Shown: piece by piece, positions 25,419 through 61,395 of the stretch | How the letters are laid out: each line of letters starts with the position of its first letter | How positions within the stretch are numbered: the stretch's first letter is position 1 | DNA from: Alphaproteobacteria bacterium | GTDB taxonomy: Bacteria > Pseudomonadota > Alphaproteobacteria > CBCXTS01 | Reading direction: 5' to 3' | DNA length: 64,000 bases | Assembly: GCA_965178085.1 (NCBI GenBank) | Contig: CBCXTS010000021.1 | Location: 322,048 to 386,047 of the forward strand | The notes under the pieces: model-generated | Told to the model about the DNA's origin: nothing | Databases searched by the model: none | The model's input: the letters and a program-made list of their open reading frames with translations, nothing else | Made by a program: the position numbers and the translations under genes

Positions 25419-28325
25419 TTATTGCTCTGTGGAAGGACTATCGGGTATAATATTTTTTAATATACCTGGCAAAAGCAATGTGCTGGTATAGACTTCAATG
25501 TCTGGATTATCAACCAATCCTACAGCGCTAAAATCAGCTGCAAGCAGTGGTTGTAAACCTTTCTGCGTCGTTATATCACCAATGAATGGCACTGATCCTA
25601 ATAAATTATTTAACAAATAAAACGGCGCTACATTACCATCAATAGCAATCCAATCTGTACGTCTGTTATACTCACCACTAAAATTAACACCCAGTGTCAA
25701 ACTACTAGTGCGCCAATTTTCTATCTTAACAACATCGCCTTGATAATGTGCACTGCCTGTTGCTTTTGAAAAGCTAATACCATCATTTACTAACAAATCA
25801 ATAGGTGCAGACAACGACAAATGACTTAATAACGACAATAAAAATGGAGCATCACGAAGCGAATAATCTTCAAGGATAAAATCTAACCGCAGGCCATCAG
25901 AACTGTTTTGAGATACATTTTTACCTTTAAAAACTCCCCTATATAATGATTGACTAAAGTCAAAAGCGCGCAAGAAAAAACCAAGGTTTTGAATATTAAT
26001 ATTAAGATTTTGCTTGCCATCACCACTTGAATTCCAAATAAATTCTAGATTTGGTATATCGCTTACATTGAGATGATCTAATCCATCCTCTACCCCTTGT
26101 GCCATAAGGTATAATGTATCAAATTGTGCATTGTGCTTATCATAAATCAGGCGAATATCATGCATCATATTTTGATTAATGCTAATCTGATCCAAGGCAG
26201 CTAGTATTTTACCATCTGGTAGTATTTCTTCTAACAATTGATTAGAAAACATATCCTTTGCATTTGAGGATAAACCTGCTTGGTTTTTATTACTAATCAT
26301 CTTCAAATTTTTACTAGCAATACCAATTTCTAAACCTTCAGATTGTGTTTTTTTTATAAAACCCGATATTTGATTTTCTCCAAATTGTAAGTTTTCAATC
26401 TGCCAATCAAACCTACTGCTTTTATCAATTGTCATGCTAGAATCAAGAAAACTATCCAACGCCTCTACGCTCAATGTGTTTGCTTTTATGCTATAGGGCT
26501 TTATATATCCGCTGGAGTGAATGATAAAAGATTCTTCTAATTTTTTTGACCAACCAAAAAACGGTAAATCAAATTTAGCCTCAGTTAAGTCAATACTTAA
26601 ATCATAATTATTTTTGACATTATCTGCTATCGCTTTTGTAATTGTAATATCTAAATCACCCATACCTTCAACATAACCCGATATGATAGAATGCTTGATG
26701 AGAGACAAATCAATTGGCCCAGCAAAATGTATGATCGTTGGTATATTATCTTGATGAGGTAGCGCATGCTCTATTGAGACAATACCCTTAATGTCGCCTA
26801 TTTGCATATCTCCAGCAATACTATAGCCATCATTCAAGATATCACCGATTGTATGTTTGCTGATTGTAAGTTTTTTACCATGTAATATAAATGGAATTTG
26901 TCGGTGCTTTAATTGATAATGATTGATACTACCTTCAATAGTAAGTTCAGCCTGCTCATGAGAATCTAAAGAAGTCTCCAGTGGCAACAAAATTGTTAAT
27001 TTGCTTTTAACTTCACCACGCATGGCACTAACATCAAAAGATTTAAAGTTTGGATTGGAGACAATAAAAGCACTAAAAATATCAACAATACGTTTTACAT
27101 CACTATCAATATCTAACAAAATTTGTATTTGATTTTTTCCATCAACTTCAATAATATTACCTTGCAAATGGGTAGCTTTAAAGCCTTGACTGTTGCTTAC
27201 TGCATTAAAGGTTATCTTATTATTACTAAGAGTTATCTTGCCTTCAATATCAGATATTTCTTTTGCTGATTGATGCATTATTACAGAGGCATCTTTGACT
27301 TCAAGCACAGAGCTAAAATCTATTTGCGTAAAAACTCCATCACCACCGACCTTACCTTCAAAATCAAATGTAGCTTCCGTTAGATTACCAATTCCCATAT
27401 GAGTAGATAACCATACATAGACATTACTTTTAATTTGTTGTGGCCATTGCGCGTACACATCTGCAAAACTCACTTCCTTTATAAAATCTGAGTGGAAAAC
27501 CACTTTCCAACTTTTTTGATGTTCCTTTTTTTTAGAGCCATCTACATCTTGATTAGCAATTTCATCAATTCTAATGTAGCCTTTGCTCTCTAAATTACCT
27601 CGATGAAATTTAAGGTTTTTAATTTCCAAACTCTTCCCGTTACGCAAGGACAAATCGCCACTAGCTTGATCAATTAAAACTTCTTTATTATCAGCCAATG
27701 CAATATTAATATCCTTACCTTGAACGGGACCATCAAGCTCAAAATCATATGTTTTTTGATTAATCGTAAAATCAAAGCTACCAGAAAACAAACCATCAAC
27801 ACTGTTCAGCGTGTTTTCTAATAGAACAGAAGGCATCAAATGTTTGATATTTAATTTGCCTTTAAGAATATGATTATTTTCAATATCATACGATCTCAAA
27901 GAAACATGTGATTGAGCAAACTTCAAATCCCCTTCAATAAAGAAAACATTGCCTGAAAAATAAAAGCCAACCTGCAAAAATCCTGATACTCTAGCTGAGT
28001 TTTTTAAGCTTAAATCATACCCTATTGATTTTAAGACATGCGACAGAGACTGCATTTCAGCATCATTAAATCTTATATCAGCAACAAACCCAGAGCCCGT
28101 ATAATAATCAATATTATCAGTGCCCAAAAGCTGAACGGACACTCCAGATGGTACTGTATTTAAAAATAACTGCGAAAACTGTGCATAAGAGGTATCTACA
28201 GCAATCCAATTGAAGGTGCTTATAAGAAGTAATAGCTTTAGTCCAATACTTGCTAGAGCTCGTGTGGATATCTTCAATATATCAAACATGATTGTTGCAT
28301 AGGGTTGCAATATTATTAAGGCCAA
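25419..28325 (-). CDS. Large membrane-anchored periplasmic protein, AsmA/YhdP/TamB-like
   Basis: 968 aa with an N-terminal TM helix and then a long, repeat-poor, beta-rich sequence. The size and topology fit the AsmA-like family. Confidence 0.45.
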   Translation of the reverse strand: MALIILQPYATIMFDILKISTRALASIGLKLLLLISTFNWIAVDTSYAQFSQLFLNTVPSGVSVQLLGTDNIDYYTGSGFVADIRFNDAEMQSLSHVLKSIGYDLSLKNSARVSGFLQVGFYFSGNVFFIEGDLKFAQSHVSLRSYDIENNHILKGKLNIKHLMPSVLLENTLNSVDGLFSGSFDFTINQKTYDFELDGPVQGKDINIALADNKEVLIDQASGDLSLRNGKSLEIKNLKFHRGNLESKGYIRIDEIANQDVDGSKKKEHQKSWKVVFHSDFIKEVSFADVYAQWPQQIKSNVYVWLSTHMGIGNLTEATFDFEGKVGGDGVFTQIDFSSVLEVKDASVIMHQSAKEISDIEGKITLSNNKITFNAVSNSQGFKATHLQGNIIEVDGKNQIQILLDIDSDVKRIVDIFSAFIVSNPNFKSFDVSAMRGEVKSKLTILLPLETSLDSHEQAELTIEGSINHYQLKHRQIPFILHGKKLTISKHTIGDILNDGYSIAGDMQIGDIKGIVSIEHALPHQDNIPTIIHFAGPIDLSLIKHSIISGYVEGMGDLDITITKAIADNVKNNYDLSIDLTEAKFDLPFFGWSKKLEESFIIHSSGYIKPYSIKANTLSVEALDSFLDSSMTIDKSSRFDWQIENLQFGENQISGFIKKTQSEGLEIGIASKNLKMISNKNQAGLSSNAKDMFSNQLLEEILPDGKILAALDQISINQNMMHDIRLIYDKHNAQFDTLYLMAQGVEDGLDHLNVSDIPNLEFIWNSSGDGKQNLNINIQNLGFFLRAFDFSQSLYRGVFKGKNVSQNSSDGLRLDFILEDYSLRDAPFLLSLLSHLSLSAPIDLLVNDGISFSKATGSAHYQGDVVKIENWRTSSLTLGVNFSGEYNRRTDWIAIDGNVAPFYLLNNLLGSVPFIGDITTQKGLQPLLAADFSAVGLVDNPDIEVYTSTLLLPGILKNIIPDSPSTEQ

Positions 28326-39440: not shown

Positions 39441-39685
39441 GGATTAACCAACATGAATGCATTCGAAATTGTATACGAAAACTTTATATTCAAAAAGATA
39501 CAATTTCAGCCCAACTGAATGATCGTAATATCCAGTATTTAAATAACCAGAAAATATGATCTATTTTGCAGGCAAACTACGTTTCTATATATAAAGAAAT
39601 AAGCAAATGATGTGCCAATCAAATCGCAATAAATTTTAGAACAATACGGTTCATAAAATTTATCAAATTTACTATTAAAAGCAGT

Positions 39686-40051
39686 TTATATTTTTGAAGA
39701 AAAACCTATCACAATAATACCCCCTACAATCAGCAAAACACCTATCAAATACAATGTAGGATAACGCTGCGCAAACAAAAACCAATCAGCCAAAGGTACT
39801 AGAACAAATCCTAATGCCATAAAGCTATATCCTATTCCTAGGGGTACAGTTTGTAAAATATGAACCCACAGCAATGTAGCAATAGCATAAAGTACAATTG
39901 CTAATAAAAAAAAGGGCGTCAAAAAAAGCTTAACAATATTTTCAATAATATTTTGCTGACCCATTGATATAGCTGTATACTTGAATAGAATCTGCCCACA
40001 AGCCATCAAGAAAACAAAACCAATCAGCTTTAAAAATATCGTTATCGTCAT
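39686..40051 (-). CDS. Small four-TM EamA/SMR-like protein (ArnE/ArnF-like flippase subunit family)
   Basis: 121-aa ORF that is hydrophobic throughout, with four predicted helices and a Gly-rich last helix (IGVLLIVGGIIVIGF). Confidence 0.5.
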   Translation of the reverse strand: MTITIFLKLIGFVFLMACGQILFKYTAISMGQQNIIENIVKLFLTPFFLLAIVLYAIATLLWVHILQTVPLGIGYSFMALGFVLVPLADWFLFAQRYPTLYLIGVLLIVGGIIVIGFSSKI

Positions 40052-40348
40052 TATACAAATTCACCTATAAGTAGCTAATTAATGATATTAGAGACAGTTA
40101 CCATACTGTATATGATAGATGAACCCATCAAAATAAATTCAAGCCAGCTATGTTGTTTTATACATTATTGTTGAAATTTAAAATGCTAATATTGACAATT
40201 AATAAATCATAAAAGCTATTAAAACAACCCAAGCAAGCAATCAAACCAATCTTGACAAGAATGTCTATTTGAGTGTTATAAAGGCATTAAATTTTAAATT
40301 GACATGATAACAAAAGCAATGCAATGTTTGTTTTAAAATGATGACTAT

Positions 40349-40404
40349 CAGTTAAACTAGATTCCTTAAATTACTTCAGTTAAACTAGATTCCTTAAATT
40401 ACTT
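40349..40404. repeat. Perfect tandem duplication of a 28-bp unit (CAGTTAAACTAGATTCCTTAAATTACTT x2) immediately upstream of the PagL-like gene
   Basis: Read directly in the sequence. The duplication ends 16 nt before the ATG at 40421. Confidence 0.85.
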
Positions 40405-40420
40405 TAGTAAGTGCTATGCC

Positions 40421-40948
40421 ATGAAGCTTTTTCGATTTTATTATGTCTTTTTACTTGCTGCTATTAGCGTTTTTATTGCACCGGCATATGGTCAAACTGT
40501 ACAACAAAACCAAGACCCTAAAACTCTTCTAAGGGTTGCGGCGGGATCTTTTAATGAGTTTAAAAGTAAGCGCAATGGTGCTGTTACAGTTGATCTTACC
40601 TTGCCTTATAGCATCGATTTACCTTATGATTGGTGGTTTGTTCAACCTTTTGTAGGTGCAATGATTACATCAAAAAATGCTGCATACGGATATGCAGGAT
40701 TTAAGCTTGACTACCCTATGAATGAAAACATCTATCTTACCCCTTCATTTGCCCCGGGGCTATTTTCACATGGTGATGGCAAAGATTTGGGTTATTGGAT
40801 TGAGTTTAGAAGTGGCATGGAAGTTTCTTGGAAATTTGACAATAATAATAGACTTGGACTTGAAGTAGCACATATATCAAATGCTGGTTTATCCAATAAA
40901 AACCCGGGCGTTGAATTATTGACGTTAAGCTGGACATATCCTCTTTAA
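40421..40948 (+). CDS. Outer-membrane lipid A deacylase, PagL-like (acyloxyacyl hydrolase)
   Basis: Signal peptide, a beta-barrel of about 150 aa with aromatic girdles, and a C-terminal HxSNAG motif (VAHISNAGLS) as in the PagL His/Ser site. Confidence 0.6.
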   Translation: MKLFRFYYVFLLAAISVFIAPAYGQTVQQNQDPKTLLRVAAGSFNEFKSKRNGAVTVDLTLPYSIDLPYDWWFVQPFVGAMITSKNAAYGYAGFKLDYPMNENIYLTPSFAPGLFSHGDGKDLGYWIEFRSGMEVSWKFDNNNRLGLEVAHISNAGLSNKNPGVELLTLSWTYPL

Positions 40949-41296
40949 AAACTAACATGATAAATTGATCTATTGAGAGATTATCATTTTTAAAGCTCAA
41001 GGCAAATGAGTTATTTTGAACTTATTCTTTGGAATATATTATCTAAAAGTGATAGATAAATCCTCCCCTCACGACAATTCTTTCTAAAAGCACAGTAACT
41101 CTTTTTAAAAGATGTTTGCAAGAGGCAATCAAATGTACAAAAGATCATCGTTGCATAAACTTAGCCAACGCTCAAACATAAATCATACTCCATAGCAACT
41201 ACGACCGAGGACTAAGTCAGCAATTAGCTTTCATAGTTGTTAGAAAGTATATTGATCTTTATTTAAAAATAAAACTAGCTATAGAACAAGCTTAAA

Positions 41297-41620
41297 TTAG
41301 CTTGCAATAGCACTATTGCTTGTATCAAGCTTGCCTATAGCTGCACTTCTAGCTGCAATGCGCTTTTTAAGTTTGCGCGCTTGTAACGACAACGCACGGT
41401 CAGGTGTATTCATCAAATATGTATCCAACCCACCTCGAGCATCAATTGTACGCATTGTACTAATTGCTATCTTCAAAGATATAGATTGCTTAAGAATATC
41501 CGAGATAAGGCTCATTTTTTGAAGATTGGGTAAAAAACGACGTCGCGTCCTATTCACAGCATGTGAAACATTATTACCGCTCATGACACCTTTTCCAGTA
41601 ATATCACAACGTTTTGCCAT
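41297..41620 (-). CDS. rpmB: 50S ribosomal protein L28
   Basis: MAKRCDITGKGVMSGNNVSHAVNRTRRRFLPNLQ is the canonical L28 N-terminus. Confidence 0.9.
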   Translation of the reverse strand: MAKRCDITGKGVMSGNNVSHAVNRTRRRFLPNLQKMSLISDILKQSISLKIAISTMRTIDARGGLDTYLMNTPDRALSLQARKLKKRIAARSAAIGKLDTSNSAIAS

Positions 41621-41809
41621 TGATAGCTACTCCATTTAAAATCAAAATATTAGAGTGTCTTTTTATACATAAATTAGTTAAAATACAAGCTTCAATTTGT
41701 TTTGCCAACATATTTTATTTGAAACAATCACTACTATGCTACTACAAATACTAAAAATAGCTAAATCATCAACAAAAATCATATGAAACATCAATTTTAG
41801 ATACTACAA

Positions 41810-43298: not shown

Positions 43299-44738
<1,440 letters not shown>

Positions 44739-44759
44739 TTAGTCAATTTTTTGAATAAA

Positions 44760-45680
44760 TCAGAGCGCCTCAGCACCTGAAATAATTTCAATTAGTTCTT
44801 TTGTAATTTGCGCTTGTCGAGTTCTATTATAGGTAATCTGTAATTTGTGAATCATATCGCCAGCATTACGAGTTGCATTGTCCATCGCAGTCATGCGCGC
44901 ACCTTGCTCTGATGCAAAGCTTTCAAGCAAAGCTCTAAACAATTGTACCGAAATATTTTTAGGCAAAATCTGTTTAAGAATTTCATTCTCATCAGGCTCA
45001 AACTCATATACCGCATTCTGTGATGCATCTATTTTTTCGTAATTGTTTTGCTTATCATCTTGTTCGTCATTGTCTTGTAACGTCACACCTGTAAAAGGAA
45101 TTAACCCAAGTAGAGTAACCGTTTGTGTTAGCACTGAAATAAAACGATTATAAACCAAGCTACAAACATCAAACTCCCCATTATCGTAAAGATGATGTAT
45201 TCTTTCAGCTATCTTTTCAGCATGCTCAAATGCAGGAGTAGGTTTGCATAAATCTTCATAAACCTCAACAAATCGATCGCTATATTGACGCCTCAATTGT
45301 ACCGAAGCTTTACGCCCTATAATAAAAAGCTTAACTTGCTTGTCTTGTGATTCAAGCATTTCGATTCTTGCTTTAACATCGCGCACGATTGACCCATTAA
45401 AGCCACCACATAATCCTCTATCGGATGAGATAACAATCAATAAATGAATGCGATCTTTGCCATTTCCTACCAACAAACCTGGCCCGTTGCCTGACTCACC
45501 TACTCCTTGAGAAAGGGCCGATATCATAGATTCCATTGCCACAGCATAAGGTCTTGCGCTCTCTGCATTCTCTTGTGCACGGCGCAATTTTGCAGCTGCT
45601 ACCATTTTCATTGCGGATGTAATCCGTTTGGTAGACTGTACACTTGAAATTCTAACACGCAGTTCTTTCAAACTAGCCAT
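44760..45680 (-). CDS. atpG: F1 ATP synthase gamma subunit
   Basis: 306 aa with characteristic N- and C-terminal helices (ITKELIEIISGAEAL). Confidence 0.95.
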   Translation of the reverse strand: MASLKELRVRISSVQSTKRITSAMKMVAAAKLRRAQENAESARPYAVAMESMISALSQGVGESGNGPGLLVGNGKDRIHLLIVISSDRGLCGGFNGSIVRDVKARIEMLESQDKQVKLFIIGRKASVQLRRQYSDRFVEVYEDLCKPTPAFEHAEKIAERIHHLYDNGEFDVCSLVYNRFISVLTQTVTLLGLIPFTGVTLQDNDEQDDKQNNYEKIDASQNAVYEFEPDENEILKQILPKNISVQLFRALLESFASEQGARMTAMDNATRNAGDMIHKLQITYNRTRQAQITKELIEIISGAEAL

Positions 45681-45757
45681 TGATATCTTCCGCCATTTAC
45701 ATTCTTCATTGCATTATAGAGCCAATAATCATTGTTATACCTAAAGCAGTCACTTTC

Positions 45758-47287
45758 TTAAGAGAAATTCTTAATAAAACCTTCTAAGATTTTCTCTATT
45801 TGTTGTATCGAATCATCTGACAATTCTGATGTACTGTCAATCGTATCTAACAACTGTGAATGTTCTGATCGTAGTGCATTTAGCAAATCACTTTCAAACT
45901 TACGCACATCTCCAATCGCAACTGTATCAAGATATCCTTTCGTTCCAGCATAAATAACAATCACCTGCTCAGAAACTTTAAGTGGGCTATATTGTGGTTG
46001 CTTTAATAATTCTGTCAGCCTAGCACCTCGTGCCAATAACCTCTGCGTAGCTGCGTCAAGATCAGATGCAAATTGTGAAAAAGCTTCCATTTCGCGATAT
46101 TGCGCGAGTTCGAGTTTAACCGAACCTGCTACCTTTTTCATAGCTTTTGTTTGTGCTGCAGAACCTACACGGCTAACCGATAACCCTACATTAATAGCAG
46201 GTCGAACGCCTTTATAAAACAAATCTGTTTCTAGAAAAATCTGTCCATCGGTAATTGAAATAACGTTCGTTGGAATATACGCCGACACATCATTAGCTTG
46301 AGTTTCGATAATAGGCAGCGCCGTTAAAGATCCAGATCCATTGTCTTTATTAAGCTTTGCAGCGCGTTCAAGTAAACGTGAATGAATATAAAACACATCT
46401 CCTGGATACGCTTCGCGCCCTGGAGGACGGCGCAATAACAAAGACATTTGCCTATATGACACTGCTTGTTTAGAAAGATCGTCATAAATGATCAATGCAT
46501 GCATGCCATTATCTCTAAAATATTCACCCATTGCGCACCCTATATAAGGCGCTAAAAATTGTAATGGTGCAGGATCAGAAGCTGTTGCAGCAACAACAAT
46601 AGTATATTCCATTGCTCCGCGTTCTTCTAATGTTTTTACAACTTGTGCAACGGTCGAGCGCTTTTGGCCAATTGCGACATAAATGCAATAAAGCTTTTTG
46701 CTTTCATCTGTTCCAGCATTAATTGGCTTTTGGTTCAAAATTGCATCAATTGCAACGGCTGTTTTGCCAGTTTGACGATCACCAATAATCAATTCACGCT
46801 GCCCGCGACCAATCGGCACTAGAGCATCAAGTGCCTTTAAACCTGTTTGCACAGGTTCATGCACAGACTGTCTTGGGATAATGCCAGGAGCTTTAACTTC
46901 AGCTAATCTGCGTTCTGTATTTTTTAACGCTCCTTTACCATCAATAGGATTTCCAAGTCCATCAACAACGCGACCCAATAACGATTTTCCAGTGGGCACA
47001 TCAACAAGTGACCCTGTGCGTTTAACTGTATCGCCTTCTTTGATATCTCGATCAGAGCCAAAAATAACAACACCTACATTGTCATCTTCTAAATTGAGTG
47101 CCATCCCTTTAACATTATCAGGAAACTCAAGCATCTCTCCTGCTTGCACATTATCTAGACCATAAACACGAGCAACACCGTCTCCAACAGATATAACCTG
47201 TCCGACTTCTGCCATGTCAGTTTCATTGCCAAAATTGGCAATGCGTTCTTTTAGTAAAGAAGAAATTTCTGCGGCGCGCAGTTCCAT
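45758..47287 (-). CDS. atpA: F1 ATP synthase alpha subunit
   Basis: P-loop GDRQTGKT. 509 aa. Confidence 0.97.
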
Positions 47288-47290
47288 ACC

Positions 47291-47842
47291 TCAGTTTCCT
47301 TTCATTGATAATTCAATTTTCTTTAGCTGTGTTCCAACGGATGCATCAATCATTTTGCTTGCAAAACGTATAATGATACCACCCAATATTTCTGGATTTA
47401 CCTTATAGGCAATATCCAACTTATCACCTAAAACACTCGTCAGTGAATCTGCTGTTTGCTTTTTTGTTTTGTCATCAAACAGAAAAGCGCTAGTGATTTC
47501 TGCACGTATGATGCCACGAGAATCTGCAATCTTATCCTCAAATCGCTCAATAATAGCACGCACATTTGTTAATCTTCTATTAACACAAAGATATTTTATA
47601 AAATGAACTGTTAATTCATCACAATTAAGCTTTTCTAGCAATAATCCCATAACATCTTCTACTAGCTTACGATTGACGATTGGATTGCTAAGTAATCTGC
47701 GCAAATCTTGTGAATCGTCTAATACCTGCAACAAAGCAGCAAAGTCTCTTGAAATGATGTCTTGCTGAGCGTTGTCTTTACAAAGCTCAAATAACGCATT
47801 TGCGTATCGCCTTGCAATGATACTTTCTTTTGAACTTGCCAA
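47291..47842 (-). CDS. atpH: F1 ATP synthase delta (OSCP) subunit
   Basis: 183 aa in the position of delta at the head of atpHAGDC, 3 nt before atpA. Confidence 0.85.
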   Translation of the reverse strand: MASSKESIIARRYANALFELCKDNAQQDIISRDFAALLQVLDDSQDLRRLLSNPIVNRKLVEDVMGLLLEKLNCDELTVHFIKYLCVNRRLTNVRAIIERFEDKIADSRGIIRAEITSAFLFDDKTKKQTADSLTSVLGDKLDIAYKVNPEILGGIIIRFASKMIDASVGTQLKKIELSMKGN

Positions 47843-52695: not shown

Positions 52696-53700
52696 TTATG
52701 GCGAAAGGCCAATAAATGTTCCACTATTTTTATTTGTAATCTCGCGCATTAAAATAGAATAACGTTCAGAACCACCAAATCCTATACCATGTACTTTAGC
52801 TTTTGGTTTGCCTGTAATGACATCACGATTTAACATGTTAAGCGTTTGAACAACTTGGTCATAAGACACCCTATCATTAAAATCATCTCCAAATATATAA
52901 ATTGATAAACTTACACCAGGCTTTGCATAAGTTTTCAGTGCAGTTACAAGTCCCTCGACAGGTGAACTGTTAGAATCAGGCGTCCATCTTGACAAAAAAT
53001 TAAGTGCATTTTTACGCCGCGCTTTCGAATCTTTTATCCACTTACCCTTAGTGTTACTTACCAAATAGCGACCATTATCATTCATGATTTGAAAACCTTT
53101 TACAATTGGATGCGCAGTTAAAATATTATCAAGAAGCCGCAAAAGTGTAGGTTTAAATTTATCCATACTGCCTGAGGTGTCTACAATAAAAATAATGTAC
53201 TCGCTATCAACAGGTATCCCTCCAATTTCTTTAATTGGCTTATCAGTTGGTTTGTTGGCTTTTAAAATACCAGCTTTTTGAACAGCATTAGAATCGGCCA
53301 TACTAACCGATGAAAGCTTTTGTTGTTGGCGTATAATATCTTCATTTGCTCGATCAAGTGTATCTAGTTGTTGGTTGAGTTCTTCTAATGTTTGTTCTAA
53401 ATTTGGTAAAGATTGCTGAGTATTAGCGTGAGTTTGCTGTTGGCTATTTAATTTACTCTTAGCTTTAGAAATTTTATGGCTTAATTGGTTAACATGTTTT
53501 TCCAATGCAATAACTTCTGATAGCAATTCTGTTATCACCGCTACATCAGTACTTGCAACGACCTCAGTTGAATCAGATTGAATTGGTTGTGAATTGCCCT
53601 TCGAGATTAAAACCAATAACACCACGGCACCAAATCCACACGATATAATATCTAGAAAAGATAGACTAAAAATTTCAAGAACAGTGCGTTTTTTTTTCAT
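52696..53700 (-). CDS. Single-pass membrane protein with an ExbD/TolR-like Asp-containing TM helix, a coiled coil, and a periplasmic vWA domain with MIDAS (paralogue 2)
   Basis: TM helix LEIFSLSFLDIISCGFGAVVLLVLI, compared with TolR PLLDVLLVLLLIF. The TM helix is followed by about 100 aa of heptad-rich sequence. The vWA MIDAS is FIVDTSGSMD (DxSxS), with a Thr in GLVTAL and an Asp in IFGDDFND. Confidence 0.7.
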   Translation of the reverse strand: MKKKRTVLEIFSLSFLDIISCGFGAVVLLVLISKGNSQPIQSDSTEVVASTDVAVITELLSEVIALEKHVNQLSHKISKAKSKLNSQQQTHANTQQSLPNLEQTLEELNQQLDTLDRANEDIIRQQQKLSSVSMADSNAVQKAGILKANKPTDKPIKEIGGIPVDSEYIIFIVDTSGSMDKFKPTLLRLLDNILTAHPIVKGFQIMNDNGRYLVSNTKGKWIKDSKARRKNALNFLSRWTPDSNSSPVEGLVTALKTYAKPGVSLSIYIFGDDFNDRVSYDQVVQTLNMLNRDVITGKPKAKVHGIGFGGSERYSILMREITNKNSGTFIGLSP

Positions 53701-53713
53701 AAAATTTTATCAC

Positions 53714-54832
53714 TCATGGCCAACTTGGCGCAGGTGTCATTAATATACCTTGCGTTTTAAATGCCCATTGCCAATACATATTAGCAGCTTGAGGGTCGCC
53801 CTCCATTGGAAGCAAGACAATGCTCACTGGGACATTAGCACCAAAACTTTCCTTAACAGCGCTTTGTAATAATTGCTGTCGGCATTCCCCTGATATTGTT
53901 TTACGGTTTAATACACACCGTGAAAACACAGTGCTTGAACCTTGCGTTGGCAAACCATCTGTTACAATGTAAAGGTTTGTAATAGCAGGGTTAATCTCTT
54001 TCATTTTTCTTAATCCTGCTGCTAAGTTTGTAGCGTTTTCAGGAATAAAATCATCAATATTTTTTTGCAGTGCAGCAATATCTTGTGCTTGTGTTGTGCG
54101 CATTAACTGCTTTGGTCCCATCATATGCGCTTCTTGATTATAAAATACTACTGAAAACTCTGAACTTTCTGGTATGTTTGACAAAAGCCAATTTATAATG
54201 CGCTTCGTTCTGATCCATTTGGGACCTGCTTTTTTATCACTAGATTTTTTAATTTTACGTGCAATAATATCAATTAACTTTTCATCTGTCATTGAAGCAC
54301 TAGCATCTATTAGCAAACCAATGCGTTTTCCTTCTACAGAAAGACCAAGTAAATACTGCTCTGTTTCTTTGCCTTTTGTTTGAATATTATTTTTTGCTAA
54401 TTTTTGGCTTTCAGATTGCTGTTTTATTTTTTTTTCAATAAATTCTACACGCTGTTTTGTAAGTTCTTCAAGTTTTGTACGCGATTGATCAATATTTTGC
54501 TGTTTTTGAGAAAGCGTTGCTTGTTTTGCTTGAACATCTAAACGCAGTTTTTGAACCTTTTGCTCTGTTACAATATGCTGCTTCAACTGCTTTTCATACT
54601 GAGCATCTAAATCTATCAATGTCTGTTGTAAATTTGTAGCATGTTCAGATAATGATTTGATGTCCAAACGCAATTGTTGCGTTTGAGTTGACACTACTTC
54701 TTCTGGGGCATTAAGGTCTATCTCTGGATCAAACTTTACCAACATTAAAATTAATATAACCGCGCCCAATCCGCATGACATAATATCTAAAAAAGCTAAA
54801 TTAAAACTCTCAATAATTTTTCTTGAGCGCAT
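53714..54832 (-). CDS. Single-pass membrane protein with an ExbD/TolR-like Asp-containing TM helix, a coiled coil, and a periplasmic vWA domain with MIDAS (paralogue 1)
   Basis: TM helix IESFNLAFLDIMSCGLGAVILILMLV, about 65% identical to its paralogue's TM helix. A coiled coil of about 120 aa follows. The vWA MIDAS is LLIDASASMTD, with NATNLAAGL and YIVTDGLPTQ. Confidence 0.7.
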   Translation of the reverse strand: MRSRKIIESFNLAFLDIMSCGLGAVILILMLVKFDPEIDLNAPEEVVSTQTQQLRLDIKSLSEHATNLQQTLIDLDAQYEKQLKQHIVTEQKVQKLRLDVQAKQATLSQKQQNIDQSRTKLEELTKQRVEFIEKKIKQQSESQKLAKNNIQTKGKETEQYLLGLSVEGKRIGLLIDASASMTDEKLIDIIARKIKKSSDKKAGPKWIRTKRIINWLLSNIPESSEFSVVFYNQEAHMMGPKQLMRTTQAQDIAALQKNIDDFIPENATNLAAGLRKMKEINPAITNLYIVTDGLPTQGSSTVFSRCVLNRKTISGECRQQLLQSAVKESFGANVPVSIVLLPMEGDPQAANMYWQWAFKTQGILMTPAPSWP

Positions 54833-54841
54833 TAGATTTTA

Positions 54842-55585
54842 TTAAACCCTAATTTTTGTCAAAAGATTCCGTTCGCAATATTCTTGAATGGCTACTAGAG
54901 TTTTTTCTTGTTCTTTTTGTAATTGATACAATAAAAACATTAAAATTAAGCTGATAAACAACGCAACGAGCGTTGAATTAAATGCCAATCCTAAGCTTTG
55001 TGTCATCCCGGATATATTTCCAGATAATGCTTGATCTGCCTGAGCAAGTGCTTGGCCTATGCCGCGTACTGTACCTATAAACCCAATAGATGGAACTGCC
55101 CAAATAATATAACGTATCATTGCATTATCTGAATCTTGCTCAAGCGATACATCTTCAATTGTAGAGCGCACGCACTCGCTGGTGTTATGGACATTTTTTG
55201 TGCTTTTAAAATGCCTAAGACTTGATATAACAACCCGCATCAGTGGAGTTTCACGCTCACGATGCTCAAGCGATTCAAGCCTATTCAACAATTGATCAAT
55301 GTTTTGAGTATCTTCTATAACATTGACATAATATTGATGTTTATTGCTCGATATTTGTAAAATTTTTGATAAAATAAGATAACTTCCCCATAAAAGCCCA
55401 ATCAAACATATCTCTTGTTCTAGATCTTTTAAAATAACAAATATATTTCGTGGCGCCGAAAGGCCTTCAGCATATGCGGCTTGTATCGCACTGTCTGCAT
55501 TAGGATGGATAAACCCTAAATAAACCACATGTACTAAAACGATTGAAAGTGCTAAAGCAATAAGGCTTTTCACCATTGCTAACAT
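54842..55585 (-). CDS. MotA/TolQ/ExbB-family proton channel protein
   Basis: 247 aa. The conserved C-terminal helices AVPSIGFIGTVRGIGQALAQ...GMTQSLGLAFNSTLVALFISLILMFLLY are diagnostic of the family. Confidence 0.85.
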   Translation of the reverse strand: MLAMVKSLIALALSIVLVHVVYLGFIHPNADSAIQAAYAEGLSAPRNIFVILKDLEQEICLIGLLWGSYLILSKILQISSNKHQYYVNVIEDTQNIDQLLNRLESLEHRERETPLMRVVISSLRHFKSTKNVHNTSECVRSTIEDVSLEQDSDNAMIRYIIWAVPSIGFIGTVRGIGQALAQADQALSGNISGMTQSLGLAFNSTLVALFISLILMFLLYQLQKEQEKTLVAIQEYCERNLLTKIRV

Positions 55586-55599
55586 GTTAACTGTCTCCT

Positions 55600-55743
55600 T
55601 TAAATATCAATGGGAAATGAAACTGGCGCGTCAATACTAATCACTTCTTGTCCATATGCAAGAACAGCGGTTATCAATAAAATTAAAACAAACAAAAACA
55701 AATAAAACTTCTGTTTTTTATTATTTTTCAATAATTGCATCAT
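55600..55743 (-). CDS. Unannotated 47-aa single-TM peptide between the FGE-fold gene and the MotA-like gene
   Basis: Manual minus-strand translation gives MMQLLKNNKKQKFYLFLFVLILLITAVLAYGQEVISIDAPVSFPIDI*. It is below the ORF-track length cut-off. It lies 14 nt upstream of the MotA-like start and is on the same strand as the operon. Confidence 0.35.
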   Translation of the reverse strand: MMQLLKNNKKQKFYLFLFVLILLITAVLAYGQEVISIDAPVSFPIDI

Positions 55744-55796
55744 CTCTATGTCACTACCAAACAATCATTACTATAAAAGAATATCTATATCTGTTT

Positions 55797-57842
55797 TCAT
55801 TGAACATTCATCACTGATCTTGCAATACGAAAGCCAATCTTATCACTTGGATTGCGACCAGCTTTACGATAACTGGCTCGAAGTTCTCTCAGTGTAGCGC
55901 TTGCCCAACTTGAACCTTTCACAACATGTTTAAGAGAATTGCTATGATTTGGTTGAGGGCCCATCGGATCAGTATATACTTTTTGATTAGGTTTAGCAAA
56001 ACTATACAAATCATGTGTCCACTCACTAACATTACCAATCAAGTCATAAATTCCAAGAATATTTTGCTTGAAACTTCCTACTGGGGCAGTTTTGATATAC
56101 CCGTCTTGATAGTTTGGGATCATACGCTTTGTTGTACCTTGAGCTGAAGCATCTGCTAAATTGCCTGCCTGCTTTGGAACGGTACTATCATCGCCCCAAA
56201 TGAATTTTGTTGTAGTGTCTTTTCCTGCTTTACGCGCTAACCATTCCCATTCTGCTTCCGTTGGCAATCTGTATCCATTGGCCTTAGCATTATAGCCTTC
56301 ATATTTCCCATCAGCATTAAATCGATAGAATTGTTGCAAACCTTCTTTTTGACTAAGCCAATTGCAAAATTCTGCTGCTTGATTCCAAGTAATATTAGTA
56401 ACTGGCAATTGATCTAGTGATGCGTGTTCTATATTAAAAGCTTGATATTGTTTATTAGTAATTTCATATTTGCTAATTGCTAATTGCTTTGTAAACTGTA
56501 TCTGGCGCAAATGTTCATTCCTAATGCGTCCTTTTTCATTAGCAGGGCTTCCAATTGTTATTGCATCAGGCATAACATTAAGCATTACAATGCCAAGTTT
56601 ACTGGCAAAATGTTGATCCGCTTGATCTTGTAATATTTCAGACAAGCTTTTTAGTTCTATATTGAGCGCAAGCGCTTTGTTGTAACTTAACTCTATTTCT
56701 TGCTTAAATACCTGATAACCTGGAGCTTTTGCTTGTATTGTATATGTTGCCGCTGGGATGTCTATTGATATTGGAGTTTTAGCAAATAGTTGACCATCGA
56801 TATAAATATTTGCTCTTGGTTTACTTGTAATCGCCAAAGAACCTATTGCTTGTTTAAGGTCAAATTCAATAACTTTTAATTCACCAGGTAAAAGTTTAAT
56901 ATTGTTTGTTGCCTTTATATAACCATCTTTTTCATAGTTAATTTCAAGGGCTTTATTCGATACAAAAGACTGAGCTTCAGAACCATCTACAAGCTTGTTA
57001 TTAACCAGCAACTGCCCTCCTTCAGGGTATAATATAAAATCTATATATGCCTTTTTAGGATTTAAAATATAATGGCGTTCAATCACTGATTGGTCCACAG
57101 TGATATCAATTAAGTCATATCTCGTATCATATCCTTTAGATTCTATTGAGAGTTGATGCTTTCCTGGTTTCATTTTCAAATTCTGTGGCGTTGTTCCAAC
57201 TACATTTCCTTCAATATATAAAGTCTGCCCTGTTGGTTTTGAAGTCACTTTTAATGACCCTTCAACGGCTTTTAGCTGAAAAAACAAACGATGCACTCCA
57301 CCTCGTTTGGTGACTATCTTTTCACTGATTGGTTGATAGTGCGGATGGCTAACTGATATGGTTTGCTCTCCAACATCTATTGCTTTTGAAAAGCTTACTC
57401 CTTGATGCAGTTGCTCTCCATTAACAAACCATTGCAAACTTGAATCATCTATATTAGTGCTGGCAGTTACTATAGGAGCAATGGGCTCCATATTAATGCG
57501 AAGAGTCTCATCTAAATGTTCATCTAACCTTATTGTTTTTACTACAAAGCCATCTGCTGCAATTTGTATTGTTGTAGGAATAGCACCAATAAAATAAAAA
57601 CCCTTTTCATAAGATATTGCAAAGCCTTCAATTGTATCTATTTCGATATCAATGCTTGCATCATTAGGCTGGATATCTAAATTGACTGAACGCAATAAAA
57701 ACAACCAAACACTAAAAACCAATACAGCAAAAAGCAATACTAAACCATACAACAATGTTGATAGGCCAAACCTCACTTTAGCTTGTTTGAACTGCTTAGT
57801 TATAGGATCAGATGGATGAGAGTGATCAAACTGGCTCATCAC
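55797..57842 (-). CDS. Membrane-anchored protein with tandem PEGA-like beta domains and a C-terminal FGE/SUMF1-fold domain that lacks the catalytic cysteines
   Basis: N-terminal TM helix (FGLSTLLYGLVLLFAVLVFSVWLFLL). At least four PEGA-like repeats (for example GSLKVTSKPTGQTLYIEGNVVGTTPQNLKMKPGKHQLSIESKGYDTRY). The FGE domain is NITWNQAAEFCNWL...YRLPTEAEWEWLA...GNVSEWTHD...VKGSSWASATLRELRASYR...IGFRIA. No Cys occurs where FGE carries its catalytic Cys pair. Confidence 0.8.
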   Translation of the reverse strand: MMSQFDHSHPSDPITKQFKQAKVRFGLSTLLYGLVLLFAVLVFSVWLFLLRSVNLDIQPNDASIDIEIDTIEGFAISYEKGFYFIGAIPTTIQIAADGFVVKTIRLDEHLDETLRINMEPIAPIVTASTNIDDSSLQWFVNGEQLHQGVSFSKAIDVGEQTISVSHPHYQPISEKIVTKRGGVHRLFFQLKAVEGSLKVTSKPTGQTLYIEGNVVGTTPQNLKMKPGKHQLSIESKGYDTRYDLIDITVDQSVIERHYILNPKKAYIDFILYPEGGQLLVNNKLVDGSEAQSFVSNKALEINYEKDGYIKATNNIKLLPGELKVIEFDLKQAIGSLAITSKPRANIYIDGQLFAKTPISIDIPAATYTIQAKAPGYQVFKQEIELSYNKALALNIELKSLSEILQDQADQHFASKLGIVMLNVMPDAITIGSPANEKGRIRNEHLRQIQFTKQLAISKYEITNKQYQAFNIEHASLDQLPVTNITWNQAAEFCNWLSQKEGLQQFYRFNADGKYEGYNAKANGYRLPTEAEWEWLARKAGKDTTTKFIWGDDSTVPKQAGNLADASAQGTTKRMIPNYQDGYIKTAPVGSFKQNILGIYDLIGNVSEWTHDLYSFAKPNQKVYTDPMGPQPNHSNSLKHVVKGSSWASATLRELRASYRKAGRNPSDKIGFRIARSVMNVQ

Positions 57843-59418
57843 AAATTACCGTAACTGACAAATGATCCATCTCAATGTCAATTTTTATTGTTTTGCGTAC
57901 CGTCTTATATTTTTTTTTGCTTCCTTCTAAAATATATGTCCCGGGTTTTAACGTGATTTGCTTTTCATCTATGACACCAACATGGCCTACACCTACAACT
58001 TTGACATAAGTCTCATTATCAGAAATAACTGTAATATTAACATTTGCATCATAAGATTTAATAAGAGATTGGAGTCTTTCTAGCCGCTTCGATAATGAAA
58101 GACTTAGCACATTCAAATGCAAAAGTTGATCGTGCGTTTTTTGCGCTTTGCTTCTGATCTTAAAGTCTGTCAAGCGCTCGTGATCAATATCATATCGTCC
58201 TATTTGAGAAAAAGCTGATAGCAGTGTTGTAATTATTTCATCAAATTTTATAAAACGCTCATCGCTACCATAACGTGTGAGAGCATCTTGTGATACTTCT
58301 TTAGCATTAATCCAATGATCATTTTCTATGAATTGTTCAATCTTTTTTAGCTTTTCATCAATGTCTCTATCTTTTAAAAACGTATTAATTTTCTGGTGCA
58401 GATTTTCTGTTTCAATCCGATTAGCCCCAATCATTCGTGCCTTTTCGTATAATTTTACTGCTTCAGCAACATCTTGTTTTTGCAACGCATTTGTGCCTTG
58501 TTTAATGAAACGTTGATATTTTTCTTCTATTATTTGCTGATGTAGTTTTTGTATTTTTATTTGGATACCATCTATCTCAGGATCAAGATTTGATAATGCT
58601 TTCAATAAACTATGTTCTAATTTTATGTCATCATTGTCGCGGGCTTTTACTATTTGATGCTGTAGATCTTGAATTTTTGGTAAATTTTTAATCCGCTGCT
58701 GCAATACTAAAGCTTCTTGCGATTGAGGGTTGGTAGTAAGTGCATAATCAATTGCTTCTACGGCTTGCTTATAATTTCTTGACTGGAAATTTTGCTGCGC
58801 TGATAAAAAAGCATCATCATATGTTTTATTCCATAAAAAGCGTATATTTTTGATTTTCTGTAAAGCTTGAGTAAGCAATTCTTTGCCAGAGGTGTAATCA
58901 CCTTGCGTGAACATTGCTAGTGCTTGATCATACATTTGCAAAACTTCGTTATATTGGACGTTTTGATATTGAACTGCCCATTGGAGCAAACTTGCATGTT
59001 GTGACAAACTATTCCAATGTTCTTCAAATTTTGCCAATTCCTTTTTAAATTCTGCACTATCTAACTTAGATTGCAACACAGATTGACTGACTTTATTGTC
59101 ATTTGCATCAATATTTGTTTGAATGTCGTCAGGGTATGTATGTGACTTAACAGATGATAAGCCTACTTGGTTTGCCTCAGCCGATGACCTAGATTTTATA
59201 CCATCACCAGTAGAGCCTTCATTATCAGACTTTTCTAATTGGGATGGTGCTCTATTATCTGTTGTATCAGCTTGATTTTCAAAACTAAAATCATCAGCAA
59301 ATCGAATAAAAAAAAGTAACACGAAGGCAAAAACTGTAAAAATAACGCCTACAATCAGCATATGTTTTCTTCTGGCGTTACGCGCTTGTTTGAAATCAGT
59401 AAATTTATTGTCCATCAA
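57826..59418 (-). CDS. Single-pass membrane protein with TPR-like/helical repeats and a C-terminal PEGA-like beta domain
   Basis: TM helix MLIVGVIFTVFAFVLLFFIRF. About 350 aa of helical repeats follow. The C-terminal QITLKPGTYILEGSKKKYKTVRKTIKIDIEMD matches a PEGA-type fold. The 3' end overlaps the FGE-fold gene by 17 nt. Confidence 0.6.
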   Translation of the reverse strand: MMDNKFTDFKQARNARRKHMLIVGVIFTVFAFVLLFFIRFADDFSFENQADTTDNRAPSQLEKSDNEGSTGDGIKSRSSAEANQVGLSSVKSHTYPDDIQTNIDANDNKVSQSVLQSKLDSAEFKKELAKFEEHWNSLSQHASLLQWAVQYQNVQYNEVLQMYDQALAMFTQGDYTSGKELLTQALQKIKNIRFLWNKTYDDAFLSAQQNFQSRNYKQAVEAIDYALTTNPQSQEALVLQQRIKNLPKIQDLQHQIVKARDNDDIKLEHSLLKALSNLDPEIDGIQIKIQKLHQQIIEEKYQRFIKQGTNALQKQDVAEAVKLYEKARMIGANRIETENLHQKINTFLKDRDIDEKLKKIEQFIENDHWINAKEVSQDALTRYGSDERFIKFDEIITTLLSAFSQIGRYDIDHERLTDFKIRSKAQKTHDQLLHLNVLSLSLSKRLERLQSLIKSYDANVNITVISDNETYVKVVGVGHVGVIDEKQITLKPGTYILEGSKKKYKTVRKTIKIDIEMDHLSVTVICDEPV

Positions 59419-59474
59419 TCATTCCTTGAAAAACAATAATCAAACATTCTACATTAAACAGATAAATATAGCTA

Positions 59475-60740
59475 TTATAAGACAACATCAGGCGTTGTTT
59501 CAGCATCAAATATTCGTTTAAGGTGCGTTCTCCATTGCATATATTGTTCTTTGGCACTGCCTTGCAACTCAACAACTGTATCTTCTAACGTAACAACTTG
59601 CTTGCCAAGGCTAAGTTGTAGAGAATCTCCTAATTCATGAAGATTATCACGATGATATTCGCTTTGTGCACTCAAATTTTGTCCTTCATTCCATGTATAA
59701 ACAGCTGCTCCACCCAACCCTATTGCAAACATTGATGTGTCAACATTGGTATTCGCACCAGCTATAATACTAGCAACAGCGCCCGCAACAGACAAAATGC
59801 TTAATCCTTTTTGTATCATGGCGTCGCGCTCTGCCTCTTGTCTTGCTATATGTTCTAAAAGGGCTTCTTTTTGCCATAAATGATAGGACTCATTCATTGC
59901 TAAAGTGAAGTCTTTATAATTGCTTTGCAGCTTATCAATAAAGGCATTATCATGCTCTCTTAGTCTCTCAATGCGTGCATACATCGGATCATTGTCTGCT
60001 GGCAGACCTAGCAATTCAATTTTTTCATTTTTATCTTTGCCAAGATATTGCCCAAAAGTTTCTTGCGAAAACGCACTGGCAAATTTAATATTTGTAACAT
60101 GCTTGATATTTGTAAGCTCTTGTTTGGAATGCTTCTTTAAAAGCCTAACAATATGTTGAGCGGCTTCATCAAAAGCAGGTTGATATGAATCTTTATGGTC
60201 ATTCCTTGGATCTTGATGAAAGCTTTCTTCTATTTCATGTTCAAATATTTTTTTATCCCAAACATTTCCAAGACTATCTCTGATATCAAGCTCAAACTTG
60301 ATCTCTTTAGCGTTTGATTGCAGTATTTTTCCAAAAACATACAACTCTCCTGCTACTTGATCATTTGGCACTACACGTACTGCGCCGAATGCGCTGGTGT
60401 TTTCTAGAGATTCTTTTAACTTAAGCGGAAATCTATTTGCTTCAGCGCGTCGCAACTCAGGCCAAATATTTTCTTCTTTATAGCTTTGACTATCTTCAGG
60501 CAAACCAGGATCAAACGTTATCAACATGACATCAAGAAAAACTGATGAAGGATCTTCTTGTATCTCAGGCTTTTTTTTATCAAACAAAAGTCCTAAGTTG
60601 CTTCCTAGACTACCCGACGAACTATCCTTAGAGTTGCTCGATAATGATGATGTTTGACACCCTGATAAAAGCATCAATAGTAATATTGCTACAACAGTAG
60701 TTGCAACGCTAAATTTATTTTTATTGCATAGATGTATCAT
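59475..60740 (-). CDS. Lipoprotein of unknown function
   Basis: Lipobox LLLMLLSGCQTS. 421 aa of mixed alpha/beta sequence with a hydrophobic segment near residue 330 (LSILSVAGAVASIIAGA). Confidence 0.6.
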   Translation of the reverse strand: MIHLCNKNKFSVATTVVAILLLMLLSGCQTSSLSSNSKDSSSGSLGSNLGLLFDKKKPEIQEDPSSVFLDVMLITFDPGLPEDSQSYKEENIWPELRRAEANRFPLKLKESLENTSAFGAVRVVPNDQVAGELYVFGKILQSNAKEIKFELDIRDSLGNVWDKKIFEHEIEESFHQDPRNDHKDSYQPAFDEAAQHIVRLLKKHSKQELTNIKHVTNIKFASAFSQETFGQYLGKDKNEKIELLGLPADNDPMYARIERLREHDNAFIDKLQSNYKDFTLAMNESYHLWQKEALLEHIARQEAERDAMIQKGLSILSVAGAVASIIAGANTNVDTSMFAIGLGGAAVYTWNEGQNLSAQSEYHRDNLHELGDSLQLSLGKQVVTLEDTVVELQGSAKEQYMQWRTHLKRIFDAETTPDVVL

Positions 60741-60762
60741 ATGTAAACCGCTAAAATATTAT

Positions 60763-61395
60763 TTAATATTTTCTATATTCTTCCCATAATTTTTTTTGCA
60801 AATCAGGATCTGGTTCATTAAGGGCTTTATTATAAATGATTTTCTTAATAACTTCATCATTATTTGGAGCAACGATATCTTGAGGCACTATCTTTGATGC
60901 CGATGCTTTCCCTTGCCTATCTGTAGAGCCTTGATTCTGCTGGCTTATTTGTTCATCATCCAAACCCGCTTGTATTGCTTCATCACCAGATAAAGTTGGT
61001 GCATCTTGTACAGACAAATCATTCTGTGAAAAATCCGATTGCTGCGTTCCTGAAACATCATCTACTGCAACTGTTGAAACATTTTGACCTGTTTGTGATT
61101 CAAAAGCATCGCTTTGTAAGGCACTATCTCCATTTACATCCCCAGACAAATTAGCAGCTGCTTGCGTATTATCTTGTTGACAATCATCTCTTGCATCAAT
61201 GGATGCAAATAGAGCATCTTCTAATAGTTGTATCCGTTCTTGCGTTGTCAAAGCATCATCATCGATATTACTTAATATATTAACCTCGCAGTTACTGGCA
61301 TATGCACTGTCTTGCATTAGCACTACTTGACTAAACAAATAGATGGCAATAGCAAAGATTAACATTATCAATAAATGAAGCAAATTAATTACCAT
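60763..61395 (-). CDS. Membrane-anchored acidic D/Q/S-rich protein of unknown function
   Basis: An N-terminal signal peptide or anchor (LLHLLIMLIFAIAIYLFSQVVLM) followed by a strongly acidic low-complexity region. It is the first gene of the tight string. Confidence 0.45.
   Translation of the reverse strand: MVINLLHLLIMLIFAIAIYLFSQVVLMQDSAYASNCEVNILSNIDDDALTTQERIQLLEDALFASIDARDDCQQDNTQAAANLSGDVNGDSALQSDAFESQTGQNVSTVAVDDVSGTQQSDFSQNDLSVQDAPTLSGDEAIQAGLDDEQISQQNQGSTDRQGKASASKIVPQDIVAPNNDEVIKKIIYNKALNEPDPDLQKKLWEEYRKY

Follow-up and report, generated by a model that had tools for sequence, protein, structure and literature searches.

We analysed a stretch of 64,000 nucleotides (nt) from an alphaproteobacterium (contig CBCXTS010000021.1, positions 322,048 to 386,047 of the forward strand), which is called the window here, and focused on a gene cassette at positions 52696-61395 of it. 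The cassette consists of eight co-directional open reading frames (ORFs), all on the minus strand, which we number g1 to g8 in the order of transcription. Their coordinates are those given in a preliminary description of this DNA made from the sequence letters. Successive genes are separated by 22, 56, −17 (an overlap), 32, 14, 9 and 13 nt. The preliminary description had counted eight genes with gaps of 9-56 nt and one 17-nt overlap, and these figures are reproduced when the ORF of 47-54 amino acids (aa) at 55600-55764 is taken as the eighth gene. Profile matches also bear out its list of parts, which comprises a MotA_ExbB channel protein, two vWA proteins, a protein with FGE and PEGA domains, a tetratricopeptide repeat (TPR) protein, and a lipoprotein. 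No terminator-like site was predicted on the minus strand within the cassette region. Neither the promoter scan nor the terminator scan found more sites than in shuffled sequence, and the two do not define the transcript. The cassette is a real conserved eight-gene unit found in many proteobacteria, and it is most likely a proton-driven envelope motor.

The channel subunit, g6 (54842..55585, minus strand, 247 aa), matches the Pfam family MotA_ExbB (PF01618) over residues 112-230 with 48.3 bits against a cut-off of 22.9. Profile and structure searches had been proposed in the preliminary description, and they place g6 in the ExbB/TolQ fold. The AlphaFold 2 (AF2) model of g6 has a pLDDT of 90.6, and its best Foldseek matches in the PDB are ExbB and TolQ chains with TM-scores of 0.55-0.66, while ZorA, PomA, and MotA match far worse. 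Two threonines, Thr172 (55070-55072) and Thr205 (54971-54973), are invariant in 65 sequences, and their distance of 33 residues equals that between the pore threonines of ExbB and TolQ. The subunit is presumed to form a pentamer, and more than 7000 homologues of it, at about 50% identity, were found. The cassette has no ExbD, TolR, or MotB gene, either in the window or in the related loci with called genes.

Two single-pass proteins stand in the place of ExbD or TolR. The first, g7 or vWA1 (53714..54832, minus strand, 372 aa), has a single N-in transmembrane (TM) helix, a coiled-coil stalk, and a vWA head with a conserved C-terminal WP. The second, g8 or vWA2 (52696..53700, minus strand, 334 aa), is a paralogue of g7 and is likewise built of a TM helix, a stalk, and a vWA head. 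A short basic N-terminus precedes the TM helix in both, and each helix carries an Asp, which is Asp16 in g7 (AFLDIMSC; 54785-54787, minus strand) and Asp17 in g8 (SFLDIISC; 53650-53652, minus strand). The head of g7 contains a canonical metal ion-dependent adhesion site (MIDAS), formed by D176-A-S-A-S180 (54293-54307, minus strand) with T268 and D292. The head of g8 has D174-T-S-G-S178 (53167-53181, minus strand) with D272, and S243/S245 are at the position of the MIDAS Thr. A complete MIDAS had been reported for both proteins at first. This is correct for g7 (DxSxS...T...D), whereas g8 has a Ser (SNSSP) and its motif reads DxSxS...S...D.

The same residues are kept throughout the two families. 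Among 25 selected orthologues, neither the TM Asp nor the DxSxS motif varies in g7 or g8. A wider set of about 80 orthologues gives the same result, the TM motif of g7 reaching a little less than 95%. In the orthologue alignments D176, S178, S180, and D292 of g7 are invariant and T268 is conserved at about 90%; in g8, D174, S176, S178, and D272 are invariant and a Ser (S243/S245) is found where Thr is expected. The motif FLD[IV][MI]xC was found in 68 of the 81 g7 orthologues and 77 of the 81 g8 orthologues, some of the misses being over-extended ORF starts, and its form is specific to each paralogue (FLD[IV]M in g7 vs FLD[IV]I in g8). Direct domain matches are weak for g7 (VWA_2, E = 7e-5; VWA, E = 8e-4; Pfam) and very weak for g8. 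The two families are clear paralogues in the comparison of their profiles (hhalign probability 99.8%, E = 4e-28). No PF02472 (ExbD/TolR) or OmpA-like domain was matched in g7 or g8 in Pfam or NCBIfam at E ≤ 0.1. Among 1.84 billion representatives, the vWA2 family comprises 157 clusters (50% identity) at E ≤ 1e-30, with lengths of about 310-345 aa. The domains and the conserved motifs support the idea, put forward in the preliminary description, that an ExbB/TolQ-type channel is combined here with two Asp-bearing single-pass vWA proteins that take the place of ExbD/TolR.

The stalks of the two paralogues are matched in length. Counted from the TM Asp to the MIDAS, they have about 160 residues in g7 and about 157 in g8, and this pair (160 and 157) is the longest that we found. 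Across the loci, the TM Asp and the MIDAS Asp lie a median of 137 residues apart in g7 and 136 in g8. The lengths also co-vary between species with a Pearson r of 0.76, a value inflated by shared ancestry. A stretch of about 100 residues in both stalks matches coiled-coil structures of the PDB only. We propose that the two chains form a parallel coiled coil, because a parallel two-chain coiled coil requires matched lengths. The paralogy and the matched stalks are observed in this step, and the parallel coil would follow from them.

An explanation in which g7 and g8 are not the axle of a motor has to be weighed against these data. The vWA proteins would then be anchored scaffold or adhesion proteins of the Bat-like vWA/TPR kind, and the TolQ-like protein would work with a TolR or ExbD encoded elsewhere or alone. 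Membrane complexes of vWA and TPR proteins that have no motor exist, for example those of the Bat operons. Neither g7 nor g8 has an ExbD match in Pfam, and their docking in the channel rests on a published model rather than on the window proteins. However, the buried acidic residue of the TM helix is invariant across phyla in both paralogues, and g6, g7, and g8 are adjacent in 82 of 83 related loci, with gaps of 9-13 nt in the window. Of the Bat operon hallmarks (MoxR, DUF58, BatA), none was found in the cassette or among the genes tabulated for the related loci. The published AlphaFold 3 (AF3) model also sets such helices in the pore (PMC12204202). We consider it quite unlikely that the vWA proteins serve outside the channel.

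The motor reading of g6-g8 agrees with an in silico prediction in the literature. TM-tethered vWA proteins, encoded as heterologous pairs beside a tolQ homologue, have been described (PMC12204202; Mol Biol Evol 2025;42:msaf138, section 8, Fig. 4c-d). Their genes co-occur tightly with tolQ homologues without tolR or exbD, and their function was given as unknown (PMC12204202). The trans-pore helix (TPH) of these proteins, for which Idiomarina loihiensis was the seed, has a conserved Asp, and the AF3 model sets the helix inside a TolQ-like pentamer (PMC12204202). The likeness extends to the gene order, a tolQ/exbB-like gene followed by two different TM-tethered vWA genes with no tolR, exbD, or motB, to the Asp facing a Thr ring, and to an occurrence chiefly in Proteobacteria. 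The features agree one by one with the published description, from which we infer that g6-g8 belong to this paired TPH-vWA family. The carriers in our survey include the order of Idiomarina loihiensis (Alteromonadaceae, Pseudoalteromonas, Opacimonas). The text of the paper differs in that it has neither the five partner genes nor the co-variation of the stalks. The machine had been called undescribed, and this holds for the five partner genes; the core of g6-g8 had already been predicted (PMC12204202). In the literature searched, no description of the eight-gene cassette or of a phenotype turned up, and a 2025 survey of MotAB relatives in mBio mentions no vWA partners (0 occurrences of 'vWA').

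Compared with ExbB-ExbD-TonB and TolQ-TolR-TolA, the cassette shares the channel fold, which superposes best on these systems, the Thr pair, and a single-pass partner with Asp. The passing of proton motive force (PMF) to the outer membrane would be common to all of them. The cassette differs in its B subunits, which would form a heterodimer with a long coiled coil and vWA heads, and it has no third subunit of the TonB/TolA type. The TM helices of g3 and g4 contain no SHLS-like conserved motif.

Among the partner proteins, g4 (55797..57842, minus strand, 681 aa) starts with a short cytoplasmic segment and a single TM helix, continues with PEGA/Ig-like repeats (about 56643-57260 and upstream, minus strand; two PEGA matches, E = 5e-27), and ends in an FGE-fold domain (55818-56555, minus strand; FGE-sulfatase PF03781, E = 2e-41). 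The FGE fold, which the preliminary description had recognized, is confirmed by the g4 family profile, which matches human FGE with E = 1e-27. The domain lacks the catalytic Cys pair. At the positions aligned with C336 and C341 of human FGE, both the window protein and the family consensus have residues other than Cys, and no conserved Cys is found there over 80 g4 orthologues.

The FGE-fold protein brings to mind the type IX secretion system (T9SS) motor PorKLMN/GldKLMN, in which a Cys-less FGE-fold protein is likewise followed by a channel of the MotA/ExbB superfamily and then by a periplasm-spanning dimer in the same gene order. With the single g4 sequence, PorK/GldK are the top PDB sequence matches (E = 1e-16); with the family profile, true FGEs rank above PorK. 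The GldK model TIGR03525 gives 106 bits against a cut-off of 350, and the match covers the C-terminal FGE part only. A specific PorK homology of g4 was rejected accordingly, and PorK is retained as an analogy. The proteins also differ in their anchoring, since g4 is TM-anchored with PEGA repeats and has no lipobox, whereas PorK is a lipoprotein. The fold of g6 is that of ExbB/TolQ and not of GldL, the phyla are different, and no relatives of GldL, GldM, GldN, or SprA were found in Pfam or NCBIfam. The cassette does not belong to the T9SS motor. The analogies with PorKLMN and Agl drawn earlier are reasonable as pictures of its possible working, and the one with PorKLMN holds for the layout, but the PorK-like affinity of the FGE domain fails with the family profile.

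The lipoprotein g2 (59475..60740, minus strand, 421 aa) has a lipobox LLSG-C28 with Cys28 at 60657-60659 (minus strand) and Gln at the +2 position. It contains an alpha/beta domain of the PelC/CsgG/FlgT/TolB-N/LptE type, with PqiC and TraT also among the fold relatives, and behind it a long helical hairpin, which encloses a Gly-rich hydrophobic segment of low confidence, and a small C-terminal domain. This conserved lipoprotein family thus has, in its predicted structure, the fold of ring-forming outer-membrane lipoproteins.

The TPR protein g3 (57826..59418, minus strand, 530 aa) begins with a TM anchor and a disordered spacer, continues with a TPR array, and closes with a conserved beta domain some 70 residues long (57829-58044, minus strand). 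The final 17 nt of the gene overlap the start of g4. A word-indexed sequence search with g3 gave just 5 relatives, and profile methods on the locus-derived orthologues were used instead. The Pfam family TPR_2 is matched by g3 with E = 1e-6 and occurs in 12 of the 26 orthologues, and the family profile matches consensus TPR structures with E = 7e-21. A PEGA-type C-terminus had been suggested for this protein. In favour of it, hhalign aligns the g3 C-terminus with the PEGA repeats of g4 at 68-78% probability (E = 2-5e-5), but Pfam PEGA is matched in none of the 26 orthologues. We regard this domain as PEGA-like with moderate confidence on the strength of the profile alignment.

The two remaining partners, g1 and g5, are predicted to be secreted. 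The g1 protein (60763..61395, minus strand, 210 aa) is acidic and has an N-terminal signal or anchor segment, a helical module with a conserved Cys pair (C36...C72), an acidic and Ser-rich low-complexity middle, and a conserved C-terminal helix (DPxLxxKLWEEYRKY). No Pfam family matches it. It had been described as anchored, but it looks secreted, and in a Cellvibrionales-type subgroup its orthologues are lipoproteins with a lipobox.

The gene g5 (55600..55764, minus strand) encodes a mini-peptide of 54 aa from a TTG start or 47 aa from an ATG at 55743. Behind its signal peptide, the mature part has about 18 residues, QEVISIDAPVSFPIDI, and ends in ...SFPIDI in the window. The family-wide C-terminus is [FL]PxDI. 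The ending FPVDI is found in 55 loci, and the pattern [FIL]Px[DN]I is found in all loci where the ORF was found (72/72). An equivalent ORF lies directly upstream of the channel gene in nearly all loci, and it is called as a 51-aa gene in two of them (L002 and L003). The g5 product is a conserved secreted peptide, which the preliminary description had left undescribed. The tail of g5 showed no signal of co-variation with the MIDAS, since at the two loci whose tails end in ...NI the MIDAS motifs are normal.

Conservation of the gene string was surveyed across 83 related loci and by a carrier scan with one genome per species, whose counts are lower bounds. At least 597 species representatives carry the channel subfamily. 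They include Magnetovibrio, Sneathiella, and Rhodospirillales in the Alphaproteobacteria, Methylophaga, Alteromonadaceae, Pseudoalteromonas, Microbulbifer, Porticoccaceae, Woeseiaceae, and Arenicellales in the Gammaproteobacteria, and also Zetaproteobacteria, Nitrosomonadaceae, Desulfobacterota, and Binatia; Opacimonas is likewise among the surveyed carriers. The best matches of the window cassette are alphaproteobacterial. The whole string is present with its order kept in about 80 species of Alpha-, Gamma-, and Zetaproteobacteria, Desulfobacterota, and Binatia. Among the 83 loci, g7 and g8 are present in 82, g4 in 80, g2 in 71, g3 in 67, and g1 in 58, and most of the absences are due to cut contigs. 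Order and strand are kept through these loci with one exception, L022, a metagenome-assembled genome labelled 'Rickettsiales bacterium' SP101, in which g1-g3 are inverted. The co-conservation of the eight genes is far beyond chance.

Two further observations concern the make-up of the cassette. In L022, g1-g3 lie at 8924-11229 and g4-g8 at 2877-7800, which shows that g1-g3 and g4-g8 can be separated as two blocks of the cassette. In a Cellvibrionales/Pseudomonadales-type subgroup (L054-L083), the TolQ-like gene and vWA1 are separated by an additional gene (about 434 aa), for example at 10818-12122 of the Microbulbifer harenosus locus (L079). Its product has no visible signal peptide or TM segment and no sequence match in Pfam, NCBIfam, or the PDB. 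In about 18 loci, seemingly of the same subgroup, two lipoprotein-like genes follow the cassette (14207-14899 and 14917-15654 in L079), neither with an NCBIfam match, and a gene of about 417 aa lies upstream of the cassette in a similar number of loci (about 18). These flanking genes may be lineage-specific accessory parts.

The surroundings of the cassette in the window had led to the proposal of a link to glycoconjugates. A GT4 glycosyltransferase gene lies 91 nt downstream of the cassette, a C-methyltransferase gene 83 nt upstream, and a GT2 glycosyltransferase gene beyond the latter, all on the same strand. A machine that exports or assembles a polysaccharide or glycoconjugate of the cell surface in concert with these glycosyltransferases would fit such close spacing with no predicted minus-strand terminator, and it would also fit the PelC-like fold of g2 and the TPR of g3, which is like a part of PelB. 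However, relatives of the flanking GT4 are found at only one other locus, and relatives of the C-methyltransferase and the GT2 at none. At other loci the cassette lies beside genes of housekeeping function, among them pntAB, rpsU, opp, and tRNA synthetase genes. In Pfam searches the cassette itself showed no polymerase, flippase, Wza/Wzc, ABC exporter, or outer-membrane barrel. Since the flanks are unrelated between lineages, the cassette is an autonomous module and the glycan context is local to the genome of the window. The proposed link thus finds no backing in the wider set of loci, and we consider a glycan machine improbable.

The layout of one TolQ-like protein with two different B-type subunits recalls the gliding motor AglRQS of Myxococcus. 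In the AglRQS-Glt system, TPR proteins and the vWA protein CglB are found as well. The cassette could then be a motor for gliding or for moving adhesins, akin to Agl-Glt or GldLM, with adhesion provided by the vWA heads or by a partner that they move. In favour of this are the subunit composition (PMC12204202), the vWA fold, which the gliding adhesin CglB also has (PMC9946355), and an FGE-fold protein adjoining the motor as in gldKLMN. The likeness has its limits: CglB is an outer-membrane lipoprotein adhesin and not a B subunit of the motor, whereas the vWA heads of the cassette are tethered to the inner membrane and not surface-exposed, and no outer-membrane conduit is encoded. No Glt, SprA, SprB, or GldN families were detected in the cassette. 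The carriers, moreover, include many planktonic marine lineages and the small, low-GC, possibly host-associated genome of the window. We regard a gliding function as unlikely.

A defence role analogous to Zorya, as an anti-phage or envelope-surveillance system, had also been considered in the preliminary description. The cassette and ZorAB belong to one superfamily of 5:2 motors with a long coiled-coil extension, and g6 has a weak match to ZorA in PADLOC (E = 1e-4, 19 bits). This match covers positions 45-126 of the 505-position model, which are the generic MotA/ExbB core, and the fold of g6 is nearer to ExbB/TolQ than to ZorA. For the other proteins PADLOC gave no match in five cases and coiled-coil noise (E > 5e-4) for the two vWA proteins. 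The long tail of Zorya belongs to the A subunit and is cytoplasmic, and the system needs ZorC/ZorD or ZorE, whereas no ZorC, ZorD, ZorE, nuclease, or other effector was found here. The eight-gene composition is stable amid housekeeping genes across phyla. No plasmid copy of vWA2 was found by tblastn, and a reading of the cassette as a mobile element was rejected on the same search. A Zorya-like role is very improbable on these data, and this part of the preliminary description is not upheld.

From the parts established above, with their topology signals and conservation, the paralogy and matched stalks of g7 and g8, and the pore-type residues, we consider it probable that the cassette is a self-contained, PMF-driven force transducer across the envelope with a PorKLMN-like layout, motor and transducer being taken together. 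Our confidence is greater for the motor core and smaller for the outer-membrane ring. In the motor, five copies of g6 would surround a g7/g8 heterodimer whose N-terminal helices lie in the pore, as family knowledge and the sequences suggest. Asp16 and Asp17 would take up and release protons against the conserved Thr ring, as in ExbBD, TolQR, and MotAB. The 5:1:1 complex, with relative rotation of the pentamer and the vWA1-vWA2 axle, is inferred from the ExbBD/TolQR/MotAB paradigm together with the published AF3 model.

Beyond the membrane, g7 and g8 would extend as a parallel coiled coil of matched length that carries two metal-binding vWA heads at its tip. With at least about 100 helical residues, the shaft would be about 15-20 nm long, enough to span most of the periplasm. 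Proton flow would rotate or pull the shaft relative to the pentamer, and the vWA heads may then act on an assembly near the outer membrane, made of the ring-type lipoprotein g2 and the FGE-fold head of g4, the latter extended from the inner membrane on its PEGA/Ig repeats. The TPR protein g3 would be the scaffold. The acidic, secreted products g1 and g5, the latter with its ...PxDI end, are candidate ligands of the MIDAS sites or of the TPR groove. The output step, in which the heads would drive the outer-membrane assembly, follows by analogy and is the weakest step of the model.

Several points weigh against the transducer model. The 5:1:1 stoichiometry and the docking are borrowed from a published model of another species, which was matched by its description. 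The vWA assignment of g8 is founded on paralogy and motifs, with no strong hidden Markov model match in its favour. The placing of g2 in the outer membrane follows from the +2 rule alone, and the g2-g4 ring is an analogy on which the monomer model is silent, as it does not address oligomers. The PorK-specific affinity of the g4 sequence vanishes with the family profile, as noted above. None of the eight genes codes for an outer-membrane barrel, an adhesin, or a cargo, and no experimental phenotype for it was found in the literature.

A more specific version of the force transducer, which we put forward only tentatively, makes it a rotary counterpart of PorKLMN. Here the TolQ-like pentamer would spin the heterodimeric shaft, and the MIDAS heads would grip the g5 peptide (...FPVDI-COOH) or the acidic protein as a coupling pin and so drive a ring of g2 (PelC/CsgG-like) and g4 (FGE-fold) at the outer membrane. 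If this version is true, the cassette would add a new class to the outer-membrane processes powered by PMF, and its task could be secretion, the handling of lipoproteins or surface proteins, or a remodelling of the envelope.

Flagella, Ton uptake, Tol-Pal, gliding and T9SS, and Zorya defence all draw their power from 5:2 motors, and each newly understood member of this class has revealed a fresh route of energy to the otherwise unenergised outer membrane. The cassette is a widespread, compact, and self-contained member in which the usual B subunit is replaced by a shaft with integrin-like metal-binding heads. To the three-gene motor core predicted in silico (PMC12204202), our analysis adds five partner genes and, among their products, a conserved secreted peptide. 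With all eight parts known, the system is directly testable in cultivable carriers, such as Microbulbifer harenosus, Pseudoalteromonas xiamenensis, Methylophaga, and Magnetovibrio blakemorei.

The rest of the window gives some hints about the organism. Its GC content is 36%. Genes for the alpha, gamma, and beta subunits of ATP synthase (Pfam) lie at 43299-47287 (minus strand), and the adjacent 183-aa ORF at 47291-47842 may be the delta-subunit gene. The F0 genes are absent directly upstream of these genes, where glpK is found instead. A split arrangement of the F1 and F0 genes is usual in Alphaproteobacteria. A 968-aa ankyrin-repeat protein is encoded at 36534-39440 (minus strand), with repeats at residues about 727-798, and proteins of this kind are typical of host-associated bacteria. 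Together with the alphaproteobacterial best matches of the cassette, the low GC content, the ATP synthase layout, and the ankyrin protein hint at a low-GC, possibly host-associated alphaproteobacterium. The preliminary description spoke of Rhizobiales, but none of our results points to that order. For another ORF of 968 aa, at 25419-28325 (minus strand), Pfam gave no family at E ≤ 1e-5 and NCBIfam gave nothing meaningful. A gene-poor stretch of about 2.4 kb (39441-41809) contains a single ORF of at least 150 aa, at 40421-40948. The sole Rfam match in the window is a single tRNA gene at 16434-16507 on the plus strand.

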